Below, one piece after another: positions 34,080 to 37,947 of a stretch of 64,000 nt of DNA. A program made the position numbers and the translations under genes. The notes beneath the pieces are model-generated. The model did no database searches. It saw only the letters and a list, made by a program, of their open reading frames with translations, and was not told the origin of the DNA. Each line of letters starts with the position of its first letter. Position 1 is the stretch's first letter. Source of the DNA: an uncultured delta proteobacterium (GTDB taxonomy: Bacteria; Desulfobacterota; Desulfobacteria; Desulfobacterales; Desulfosalsimonadaceae); assembly GCA_963826785.1 (NCBI GenBank), contig CAWGYD010000004.1:288001-352000 (forward strand), in the 5' to 3' direction.

Positions 34080-34218
34080 AGGGATGGTGCGTAAACGAGA
34101 CCACCGTCCCGGATGGATATGCCGCACACCTGTAAATCGCTTTGAACTATATCCTTTTCTCGACTTGACATCACTGCTGCACCCTGTGTATCTTTTCCAT
34201 CATCGTTCTGGATAGTTA

Positions 34219-34359
34219 GTGCCCATCCACAGATGAGATAATTTGTTCAAGTTCAAGGAAGGCGAAAATTTTAACCGCAGGAATACTCAACGTATTTTGA
34301 GGATTAAAATTTGAGCCTGACGCAGAAATTGGGCAAATTAGCCAATTGTGGATGGGCAC
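34219..34359. mobile_element. 141-bp MITE, family D copy 1, with 13-bp TIR and 6-bp TAGTTA direct flanks
   Basis: GTGCCCATCCACA...TGTGGATGGGCAC; TAGTTA at 34213-34218 and 34360-34365; inverted copy at 50072-50212. Confidence 0.88.
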
Positions 34360-34441
34360 TAGTTAAATCCTGGCTTTACCAAAACAATTGCTTCATTTTC
34401 GGATAATTTGACCGATTGGAAATATCGAGGGCCGCCCTCCT

Positions 34442-34615: not shown

Positions 34616-35639
34616 TTCTTGTCGGACCAAATTAACACTTTGAAAATTTATATAATAATAGTTATAATTAGTCCATTTTTTGTCCTATGGTGATCTTTTT
34701 GAGGACAAAAATCCGATTTTAAGAGTGGTCGACCGGCCCGACGATACTTCGCTATTCATGGGGATTAATAGGACGATGGCCCGCGCAAATCGGCATCACA
34801 TTACCGGGTACGTATGGCACATTACGCATCGATGCCATAAGAAAGAATTTCTTCTGAAATTCGAAAAAGACAAAAGGCGGTGGCTGAACTGGTTGTTCGA
34901 AGCCAAAAAGCGCTTCGGGCTTTGCGTTTTAGATTACACCATCACCTCAAATCATATCCATTTGCTCGTATATGATCGAAAAGAAGGTGTTATTCCGAAA
35001 TCGATCCAGTTGATAGCCGGCCGAACAGGAAGGGAATATAATATCCGTAAAAACCGGAAAGGCGCCTTCTGGGAAGACCGGTATCATGCCACGGCAGTGA
35101 AAACGGATGGCCATTTTGTTAAATGTCTTGCATATATTGATTTGAATATGGTGCGGGCCGGAGTTGTTCAGCACCCCTCAGAATGGGGCTTCGGAGGATA
35201 TGCGGAAATTCAGAATCCGAAGCAGCGATATTCCATTATAAATCGTCGAGAATTGGTGAATTTGCTCGGGATCAAGGATGATATCCAATTGATGGAATCC
35301 CACCGGAGATGGGTTGATGAGATATTGGAAAAAGGATTGAACCACCGGGATGCCAGATGGACGGAAAGCATTGCGGTCGGAGATAAGGAATTCGTGACAG
35401 AAACCAGATCAAAACTGGGTGTAAAAGCCGTGGGCCGGAAAATATCAGAAAACAATGGAATCTATGAACTGAGAGAATTCCAGACTCCTTACAATCCTCT
35501 TTTTAGTCCTGAAAAGTGCGGGCTAAGCCTTGAAAACGCCTATTTTTGGGGGTAAATTTCAATAATAATCAAGAAGATAATTTGGTCCGACAAGAAACAG
35601 AGAAACAGAAAACAAGAAGATAATTTGGTCCGACAAGAA
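34616..35639 (+). mobile_element. RAYT/Y1 transposase unit bounded by a 19-bp inverted repeat
   Basis: TTCTTGTCGGACCAAATTA (34616-34634) and its exact reverse complement at 35578-35596 and 35621-35639. Confidence 0.75.
34776..35555 (+). CDS. REP-associated tyrosine transposase (RAYT, Y1 HUH family)
   Basis: MARANR, WHITHRCH, SNHIHLL (HUH), FWEDRY and YIDLNMVRAG; lower GC than host genes. Confidence 0.88.
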   Translation: MARANRHHITGYVWHITHRCHKKEFLLKFEKDKRRWLNWLFEAKKRFGLCVLDYTITSNHIHLLVYDRKEGVIPKSIQLIAGRTGREYNIRKNRKGAFWEDRYHATAVKTDGHFVKCLAYIDLNMVRAGVVQHPSEWGFGGYAEIQNPKQRYSIINRRELVNLLGIKDDIQLMESHRRWVDEILEKGLNHRDARWTESIAVGDKEFVTETRSKLGVKAVGRKISENNGIYELREFQTPYNPLFSPEKCGLSLENAYFWG

Positions 35640-35671
35640 ACAGAAGACAGAAGAAACAGGATGAAGAACGA

Positions 35672-35734
35672 ACATAACCATCCGCTGAACCGGGCGCTCC
35701 TGACATCGCGCCGGTTACCGGCACATTATATTAG
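35672..35734 (+). other. Degenerate integron attC-like site
   Basis: ACATAAC (R'') - CCGCTGAACCGGGCGC - loop - GCGCCGGTTACCGG - degenerate R' (ATTATAT/ATTAG in place of GTTRRRY). Confidence 0.6.
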
Positions 35735-35967
35735 ACATAATGGTTGACAGATAGCAGAGCAATTTGTGTCGGCAAGTACAAGCCGCGAAATTCATCATGG
35801 CCTCCGACGAGCTTTTGAGGGCCCATTCTCGGCCATGATGAATTTCGCTGACCTCACACCCGGCACACCCATTGATAATTAAAAGACCTGCCATCCTTGC
35901 AAACGTGGGTTATGTTGGAAGTCATTTTAAACCACCCAACACAGAGCCAAAACCAAGGAGGCAGGTC

Positions 35968-37083
35968 ATGACAGAGAATAGCACATTTATTGGTATGGAC
36001 GTCCATAAAAATTCCATCGATATCGCCATTGCGCAAACCGGCCGTGACGGAGAGATCCTGCACTACGGCCAAATAGACGGCACCCTTGCAGCAATAGACA
36101 AGGTGGTTCGAAAATTGGTCAGCAAAGGCAACCGGCTGCATTTTGTGTATGAGGCCGGCCCCTGCGGATACCAGATCTACCGCCACCTCACCTCCCGGGG
36201 CTTCGATTGCTCGGTAGTGGCTCCTTCCAGGATCCCCAAACCCAGTGGCAAGCAGATCAAAAACGATCGCCGGGATGCCCTGATGCTTGCCCGCTTGCAT
36301 CGCGCCGGCGAACTGACCGCTGTTCACGTTCCCCTGGCTGAGGACGAGGCCGTCAGAGATCTGACCCGAGCCCGGGAGGATGCCAAGGGCGATGAGAAAA
36401 AAAGCAAACAGCGTCTGCTGGCCTTTTTGCTTCGCAGCGGCATCCGCTATACGGGCCGGGCATCGTGGAGCCAGGCCCATATGCGCTGGCTGTCCGACAT
36501 TAAGATGCCCCACCGGTCACAGCAGGTTGTCCTGCAGGAATATATCGGCACCCTGAACCAGTGCAAAGATCGGGTACAGCGGTTAACCGATCAGATCCGG
36601 CAGCTGTTGCCCGAATGGCAACTGTTCCCGGTCGTTCAAGCGCTTCAGAGCATGCGCGGTGTTTCAATGATCGTGGCGGCCACGACGATGGCCGAAATCG
36701 GCGACTTGAAACGATTTGAAAATCCTGCCGAGCTGATGGGCTACCTGGGCCTGGTGCCGTCGGAAACTTCCAGCGGCCAAAAGATCAGGCGCGGCTCGAT
36801 CACCAAGACCGGCAATGGCCATGTGCGGCGTGTATTGGTTGAGGCTGCCTGGGCCTACCGGCTGCCGGCCAGAGTGAGCCGAGTATTGCTCAAACGGCAA
36901 GAGGATTTGCCACAATCTATTTGCGACATTGCATGGAAAGCCCAACTCCGACTATGTGCGCGCTACCGGCACCTATGGGCCAAAGGCAAAGTGAAACAAG
37001 TCATCGTAACTGCAATCGCAAGAGAACTTTGTGCTTTTATGTGGGCGATCGCCAATGAAACAAAATTTCCAGTAGCGGCATAA
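35968..37083 (+). CDS. IS110-family DEDD transposase/recombinase
   Basis: FIGMDVHK, VYEAGPCG, KNDRRDA, GLVPSETSSG and ITKTGN motifs; AAGGAGG RBS. Confidence 0.95.
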   Translation: MTENSTFIGMDVHKNSIDIAIAQTGRDGEILHYGQIDGTLAAIDKVVRKLVSKGNRLHFVYEAGPCGYQIYRHLTSRGFDCSVVAPSRIPKPSGKQIKNDRRDALMLARLHRAGELTAVHVPLAEDEAVRDLTRAREDAKGDEKKSKQRLLAFLLRSGIRYTGRASWSQAHMRWLSDIKMPHRSQQVVLQEYIGTLNQCKDRVQRLTDQIRQLLPEWQLFPVVQALQSMRGVSMIVAATTMAEIGDLKRFENPAELMGYLGLVPSETSSGQKIRRGSITKTGNGHVRRVLVEAAWAYRLPARVSRVLLKRQEDLPQSICDIAWKAQLRLCARYRHLWAKGKVKQVIVTAIARELCAFMWAIANETKFPVAA

Positions 37084-37149
37084 CAAAGAACCCATTACAA
37101 CGGACAGCATTTACAAATAAAGGATATTTAAAACGAAAAAAAACATCAT

Positions 37150-37330
37150 TATTCCAAGGCAGCCATAGGGGCGCAACCACGGCCAGGAGAACCCTCGAGG
37201 ACACTATTGGATAAGCCTTAGGGCCGAACTCCCGAAATTAGACCGAGGCAGCTCCGCGACGAAGCTAAGTCATGCGGTAACCAACCCGCGAATATCAGAG
37301 TGATCAACCGTCGCAACACGGTTCCGCCCC
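37150..37330 (+). ncRNA. Candidate seekRNA/bridge RNA of the IS1111-type element (ends approximate)
   Basis: Two stem-flanked internal loops containing GACACTA and ATTAG (target matches) and ATATCAGA (circle-junction match). Confidence 0.6.
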
Positions 37331-37428
37331 TGTGGGTGCCTTGGAACATAAACCAGAACAAGGACTGTTGAAAAACAGTTGGCAGGAAGTGCTTTTTTCT
37401 CTTGACAACTGTCAACCATATCAGTGTC

Positions 37429-37947
37429 ATGTTTGAAACTTACAGAAAGATATTTTGGTGTATTGCAATTCTAAACCTCAGTTTTTCATTTCCTGAGCAT
37501 GCTTATGCTCACATGATAGCAGATTCAGAAGCATTCTTGATTGCAGGTCCATTGATAATTCCATTCGCTAACATAATAAAGCTTATTATTATAGCCCTAA
37601 TAAAGCCATATAAAGAAATCAGGCCTCTTGGAAGAACTTTTCTATGCGTTGTTTTAGTTGAAATCTTCTTAGTCTTTTTTTCCTCTTCAATAATAATCGC
37701 TTTCATAAAAAATGGTATATTTTATCCAGGTTCAGCTTTAAATAGTGGATTAACAGAAATGCAGTGGGGTTTTTCAGTCATCATCTTTTATGGCGTACTT
37801 TCGATTTTACCGAATTTTTCTCTTGTCAAAGAGAAAAACCAAAAATTAAAAGAAATAGCTGCTAATCCTATAAAAATATCATATGCAACAATACTCGCGT
37901 TTATTACGCCAGCGATAGTAATCTTTTTGGCAGCCATGGCAAAATAA
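37429..37947 (+). CDS. AT-rich multi-TM hypothetical protein, probable integron gene cassette
   Basis: Very low GC, about 5 hydrophobic segments; starts 4 nt after the IS end; stop codon abuts an attC R''-like ATATAAC. Confidence 0.7.
   Translation: MFETYRKIFWCIAILNLSFSFPEHAYAHMIADSEAFLIAGPLIIPFANIIKLIIIALIKPYKEIRPLGRTFLCVVLVEIFLVFFSSSIIIAFIKNGIFYPGSALNSGLTEMQWGFSVIIFYGVLSILPNFSLVKEKNQKLKEIAANPIKISYATILAFITPAIVIFLAAMAK

Follow-up and report, generated by a model that had tools for sequence, protein, structure and literature searches.

The noncoding region 3' of the recombinase gene in this insertion sequence most probably encodes the two-loop bridge RNA of an IS110-family element, which would move through a circle with a junction promoter and by exchange at an AG core. 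Among sequenced relatives, the guides of both loops change with the DNA that they are predicted to read. An earlier note, made from the letters of the window alone (the window is the whole 64,000-nucleotide stretch analyzed), had proposed an RNA-guided recombinase and named covariation of the loops with their targets as the check; that test was run, and the covariation of guides with targets and of the donor loop with the junction in relatives supports the proposal. It is well supported that the element belongs to the known class of RNA-guided recombinases and is not a new kind of system. Its features are as follows, with the evidence for each in parentheses.

35730-35732, plus strand: ATT, the left target flank, which the 3' target guide reads (sequence and guide matches)
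35733-37422, plus strand: whole insertion sequence, 1,690 bp (boundaries common to the C6 copy)
35733-35739, plus strand: 7-nt left extension AGACATA, in which AG is the donor core (end comparison)
35736-35741, plus strand: predicted -10 box CATAAT of the circle-junction promoter (by eye)
35740-35750, plus strand: left sub-terminal inverted repeat, 11 bp (repeat search)
35968-37083, plus strand: IS110-family recombinase, 371 aa, with D11, E62, D100, D103, and S269 (Pfam, NCBIfam, and conserved residues)
37152-37346, plus strand: predicted RNA with a long outer stem, 37152-37178/37320-37346 (fold and two-sided changes)
37186-37255, plus strand: target-binding module with GGAG/CTCC and CCTCG/CGAGG stems, two guides, and an inner hairpin (fold and alignment)
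37199-37206, plus strand: 5' target guide, pairing with the top strand from -1 through the core AG to +5 (covariation)
37237-37241, plus strand: 3' target guide, equal to top strand -3 to -1 plus the core and so pairing with the bottom strand (covariation)
37242-37243, plus strand: putative target-loop handshake bases AC, identical to the first two bases past the donor core (analogy to IS621, PMC11208158)
37256-37314, plus strand: donor-binding module with stem GCGACG/CGTCGC and inner hairpin GCGG/CCGC at 37274-37289 (fold and alignment)
37266-37271, plus strand: 5' donor guide TAAGTC, complementary at 5 of 6 positions to the core plus left extension (sequence and by-eye comparison)
37292-37298, plus strand: 3' donor guide ATATCAG, with the same letters as the right end followed by the core in the circle junction (covariation in distant relatives)
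37299-37300, plus strand: donor-loop handshake bases AG (relatives)
37402-37407, plus strand: predicted -35 box TTGACA, 18 nt from the -10 box after joining of the ends (by eye)
37409-37422, plus strand: right sub-terminal inverted repeat (37409-37419) plus 3-nt extension ATC (repeat and copy comparison)
37423-37429, plus strand: target core AG plus right flank TGTCA, for which the guide predicts TGTCC (sequence and guide matches)

By analogy with IS621 and ISEc11, the element would form a circle in which the joined ends build a sigma-70-type promoter driving the recombinase gene and the RNA, as is reported for the junction promoter of ISEc11 (PMC11187229). The recombinase would then bind both loops, open the target and the junction, and exchange strands at the AG core, with an effective target that is probably short, about (A)TT-AG-TGTCC, and with mismatches tolerated.

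The element, its copies, and its recombinase

The sub-terminal inverted repeats are perfect over 11 bp (35740-35750 versus 37409-37419; mostly 10 to 14 bp in relatives), and the extensions beyond them, 7 nt on the left and 3 nt on the right, occur without target duplication both here and in the genome's second full copy (C6). These repeats and extensions bear out the element ends from which the earlier note had derived the target TAGTGTC and the circle junction. The data set comprised 160 related loci from two scans plus the genome's own three copies (163 in total); the end pattern is the same in relatives, with both ends found at 110 of the 163 loci and the right end only at 16. The first alignment took in 88 loci with at least 64% protein identity and a noncoding region of less than 420 nt, and the remaining 38 were read later, for a pooled total of 126.

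The recombinase has a DEDD RuvC-like N-terminal domain (PF01548; E, 1e-16) and a C-terminal Tnp domain (PF02371; E, 2e-23) and scores 262 bits against NF033542, the NCBIfam model of IS110 RNA-guided transposases (cut-off, 140). Its catalytic positions are conserved in related loci (D11 in 157/157, E62 in 157/158, D100 in 159/161, and D103 in 161/161), and at the position of S269, 147 of 159 loci have S and the other 12 have T. The frame is open and the catalytic residues are all present, so the recombinase is intact, as had been supposed.

A genome profile search returned only three copies of the element and no solo copies of the RNA: the window copy, C10, which is without its left end (98%), and C6, which has a frameshift (95.5%). 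The C10 copy (C10:259149-260791) has an open transposase frame and guides identical to those in the window, lacks its first ~75 bases, and carries AA plus one extra base ahead of TGTCC in its right flank. By eye, the C6 copy (C6:715152-716828) has about 11 differences from the window within 37196-37240, against 4.5% overall, and both of its target guides appear to have changed as a block, perhaps through exchange with another element. No empty insertion site was found among the 41 genomes searched. The left end of the element also contains a perfect 18-bp inverted repeat (35785-35848), and stretches like it are found outside elements at C2:46893 and C6:731912. With one of the three copies frameshifted and another without its left end, the anatomy could be correct and the window copy nevertheless no longer active in its host; we regard this as unlikely, since the window copy retains an open frame, the five catalytic residues, both ends, and both predicted promoter halves.

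The predicted RNA and its donor loop

The segment from 37150 to 37350 folds at -83.3 kcal/mol (z, -5.58), a value that none of 200 shuffles equaled, and both stems described in the earlier note (CCTCG/CGAGG and GCGACG/CGTCGC) are present in this fold. A structural alignment was made of 62 sequences out of the 88 closer relatives. The proposed 49-pair structure is 93.7% paired across these sequences, and two-sided changes were found in 20 of the 49 pairs, compared to 10.9 after shuffling (0 of 500 shuffles reached the observed number). The outer stem, which consists of 25 pairs, accounts for 15 of the 20 compensated pairs, and the inner donor hairpin never varies, so that covariation is silent on that hairpin. 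When applied to the aligned relatives, RNAalifold returned the outer stem, GGAG/CTCC, and both stems of the donor module but missed CCTCG/CGAGG; the innermost pair of the latter stem is broken in 29 of the 62 aligned sequences. No Rfam family matched at the gathering score within the window. Twelve RNA runs were found, each with 5 to 7% of the words. No circle junction was seen in four of the 12, whose contigs came only from relatives; the contigs from these four runs were mostly less than 95% alike and spread over the whole element and are therefore uninformative on expression.

At 37292 to 37299 lies ATATCAGA, which would be expected by chance 0.008 times at the locus and which had been equated with the predicted circle junction. 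This identity holds for the first seven bases, whereas the eighth is a handshake position. Of 126 close relatives, 123 retain ATATCAG, and since donor loop and junction are both invariant among them, distant plasmid copies were used for covariation. The test set consisted of 19 distant loci with 45 to 57% identity (17 plasmid copies plus L041 and L042), two of them truncated. Among the 17 scorable loci, donor loop and junction agreed at 7 of 7 positions in 14 and at 6 of 7 in 3, covering five junction types (ATATCAG, ATGAGAG, ATCAGAG, ATAAGAG, and ATCGGAG). The search pattern fixed AT and AG, so that three positions were free to vary; the junction ends of L183, L187, L041, and L042 were set by eye, and that of L189 is the second of two candidate ends. 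The 5' donor guide (37266-37271), which is absent from the earlier note, follows changes of the left end in L178, L179, and L189 by eye. The donor loop accordingly covaries with the junction, which is the donor-loop criterion of Durrant et al., with the 5' donor guide compared by eye only.

These data bear on whether the first loop might work alone as a target-only seekRNA, with the protein recognizing the ends by their inverted repeats and no need for the donor match. ISEc11, which has the same kind of ends, is reported to have moved with an 82-nt RNA (PMC11187229), and the 5' donor guide of the present element is an imperfect match and differs between relatives that share a left end. However, the donor 7-mer is nearly constant in close relatives and tracks five distant junction types, a pattern for which selection on pairing would be needed, and we therefore consider a target-only RNA quite improbable and favor the two-loop bridge RNA.

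The handshake bases, which the earlier note had not described, give one pair before exchange and three after when the element is read on the opposite strand, a balance that would favor insertion; the same count is reported for IS621 (PMC13626964). In 86 relatives the balance favors insertion in 64, is tied in 14, and is against it in 8, and the handshake covariation comprises just two to three independent changes.

Target guides and insertion sites

All five motifs of the earlier note lie where it had placed them (CCTCG, 37193-37197; CGAGG, 37244-37248; GACACTA, 37200-37206; ATTAG, 37237-37241; and the donor match at 37292-37299). GACACTA is confirmed as guide sequence, but the 5' guide is one base longer, with G37199 reading target position +5. 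In 20,000 random draws of AG sites, equally long two-sided matches in the region occurred in 2.1% (5.2% for the 5' guide alone and 38% for ATTAG alone). Since target matches at a single locus thus arise about 2% of the time by chance, a comparison of relatives was needed; the caution about chance that the earlier note had voiced was right for the locus alone and was removed by the comparative tests.

When the 5' guide was compared with its own right flank at 79 distinct sites, positions +1 to +5 matched in 72, 74, 75, 72, and 64 sites, and position +6 matched in 13, which is chance level. With 30 distinct guides and one site for each, 145 matches were observed, whereas 10,000 permutations gave 70 on average and never more than 96. 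Among 101 distinct elements, the corresponding counts from +1 to +6 were 94, 96, 96, 90, 81, and 29. The 3' guide matched at positions -1 to -5 in 29, 24, 20, 14, and 12 of 31 distinct guides, a total of 99 compared to a permutation mean of 49.6 and a maximum of 74; these alignments indicate that it covaries with the flank at -1 to -3. Its register was set from the spacing to the stem, with manual shifts in six loci, and is wrong in L054. Across 53 elements, a blind scan of 13,944 pairs of RNA column and DNA position placed 37200 to 37203 at ranks 1 to 4 (kappa, 0.89 to 0.91), and 37199, 37206, 37239, and 37238 were also in its top ten. The high score of RNA position 37264 with left-end position +2 was treated as a clade effect and set aside. 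The guides for both strands thus covary with their targets, which is the target-loop criterion of Durrant et al.

Among 30 path-disjoint pairs with differing guides, drawn from a tree of 80 elements, the own flank was the better fit in 27, the worse in 1, and equal in 2; this test used 80 rows, with 28 of the 126 loci left out (22 unparsed and 6 with short flanks). The C6 copy likewise has a changed 5' guide and a flank changed to match. Chance, or the shared ancestry of elements and flanks, is hardly credible as the source of the matches, given that, although kin share guides and ~2% of random sites match, it is ruled out by the permutations, the blind scan, and the tree-independent pairs, that a single guide at eight sites in one genome (L005-L011 and L034) matches positions +1 to +4 at five of them, and that the signal ends at +6.

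Matches to the guides are not perfect throughout. The window insertion itself mismatches its own 5' guide at +5, the left flank of C6 agrees at 3 of 5 positions with its own 3' guide and at 3 of 5 with the window's guide, the right flank of C10 is offset by one base, and the flanks of L004 and L122 are unlike their own guides. Imperfect and half matches have been reported for IS621 (10.64898/2026.08.31.748434). The specificity of its own that the earlier note had ascribed to the element is not confined to it; the same 5-nt guide is found in 18 of 53 distinct relatives. In the guide region of L033, the 5' guide and stem are duplicated (13 nt) and the flank is offset by one base. The right flanks of L115, L128, and L127 lie in short palindromes starting with GTAG, which are presumably of the REP type, and the guides there are changed to match.

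The core dinucleotide varies as well. A guide with TT goes with a right flank of AA in 15 of 16 elements, and in all 11 AA-core elements that have both ends, the left end is still AG; the left AG therefore belongs to the element. The core change is in effect confined to one clade (two changes). In the clade made up of L072-L080 and L107-L117, the target core is AA and the 5' guide has TT, but AG is retained in the 3' guide and the donor loop, so that insertion would proceed with a core mismatch.

A palindromic, MITE-like repeat of 146 bp with TA-type ends lies at 34217 to 34362; about a dozen related copies with variable termini occur in the genome, and many relatives have inserted at its ends. 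Elements with the guide TGTCC occupy 27 sites, 21 of which have TGTCC as the flank, and 16 of those 21 continue with RTCC, the end of the 146-bp repeat. In five host genomes, which were picked for having repeat-end insertions and not blind, repeat ends made up 3/45, 68/103, 5/25, 3/28, and 0/33 of the guide-matching sites; much of the excess could reflect the loss of insertions that fell within genes. With hosts chosen in this way and with such a survival bias possible, a determinant beyond the guide that steers insertion to repeat ends is only a lead. The REP-targeting IS110 elements ISPa11 and ISPpu10 resemble the present group in that the end of an intergenic palindromic repeat is where many relatives are found; here, however, the repeat is a 146-bp element of these genomes, and the window copy lies outside it. 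For ISPpu10, a structure requirement, or a determinant beyond the guide, has been reported.

Several other features surround the insertion. A hairpin directly left of the element (35670-35730) is one that we take to be attC-like; targeting of attC sites was considered and rejected, as the C6 site and relatives lie outside such sites and a pattern scan found no attC. An AT-rich, cassette-like frame (37429-37947), which starts 6 nt right of the element, has no Pfam or NCBIfam match. At 34773 to 35555 is a gene for a Y1 transposase of the REP-associated type, scoring below the NCBIfam cut-off and flanked by a 19-nt inverted repeat at 34616-34634 (left, by eye) and 35567-35644 (right, doubled).

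Relation to known systems

The transposase places the element in the ISSfr2/ISCARN28/ISEc45/ISMtsp6 lineage of the IS110 family. The nearest named element, an ISSfr2-family copy, has 53.6% protein identity, the same RNA scaffold (E, 2.5e-23), 7- and 3-nt extensions, core AG, and guides matching its own flanks, and it differs in its inverted repeats, junction (GAG, compared to ATC here), and target. In ISCARN28, the YEAGP, DRRD, and GLVPSE motifs are also present by eye, and Durrant et al. included this element among the six for which they predicted a bridge RNA with target and donor guides (PMC11208160); from the order of the legend, we infer that it falls within their IS1111 group. The figures and supplement 2 of the same paper may already show the guides and orientation of this lineage. 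A literature search found no paper devoted to the element's subgroup, and absence from print is not claimed.

In the IS621 template, the first guide of each loop equals the top strand up to the CT core, and the second is complementary to the top strand and is followed by two handshake bases (PMC11208160). The present RNA is alike in having two loops, in each of which a pair of guides flanks an inner hairpin, and an unpaired A after the first donor guide, and when the element is read on the opposite strand, its core is CT and its guide order is the same. It differs in that the RNA lies 3' of the gene and not 5', the inverted repeats are long, the protein match is weak (E, 2e-5), the guides are shorter (5+2 and 2-3+2 nt), and the long donor match is the 3' guide.

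The seekRNA elements of the IS1111 group described in PMC11187229 (ISEc11, ISKpn4, and ISPa11) have likewise 11-bp sub-terminal repeats, 7- and 3-nt extensions, a 3' noncoding region, a top-strand match that precedes the bottom-strand match, a junction promoter (predicted in the present element), and natural reprogramming. They differ in transposase length (330 to 350 aa, compared to 371 aa here), and the donor-matching loop covaries in the present lineage. The reversed guide order reported for IS1111 elements (PMC11187229) would be simply accounted for by reading on the opposite strand. By the definition of Siddiquee et al., the ends (repeats of 11 to 13 bp and extensions of 7 and 3 nt) and the ~340-nt noncoding region 3' of tnp, with the top-strand match first, are those of the IS1111 group, whereas the transposase is outside its length range. 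The element, which the earlier note had compared with IS1111 elements, thus has IS1111-type ends, but its transposase is not close to canonical members (26% identity to IS4321/IS5075). Given this length, we do not file it as canonical IS1111; it is a member of the IS110 family that would work like IS621 and has IS1111-type ends.

Taking these comparisons together, we tentatively suggest that the lineage may be a naturally reprogrammed library (30 distinct 5' guides among 79 sites) in which an IS1111-type 3' RNA is a full IS621-like bridge RNA on the opposite strand, and in which short guides and a second, nonguide determinant would lead to the ends of the 146-bp repeat, with the guides TGTCC, TGCCC, and TGCCT tracking repeat-end variants as a mobile element follows a mobile repeat. 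A target this short points to limited precision if the element were used as a tool, unless such a second determinant exists. Natural variation has mapped four guides and the handshake bases of a compact recombinase from a lineage far from IS621, and with its guides mapped, the element is directly testable and reprogrammable. Moreover, the covariation of its donor loop is relevant to the choice between a target-only seekRNA and a two-loop bridge RNA for elements whose ends are of the IS1111 type.
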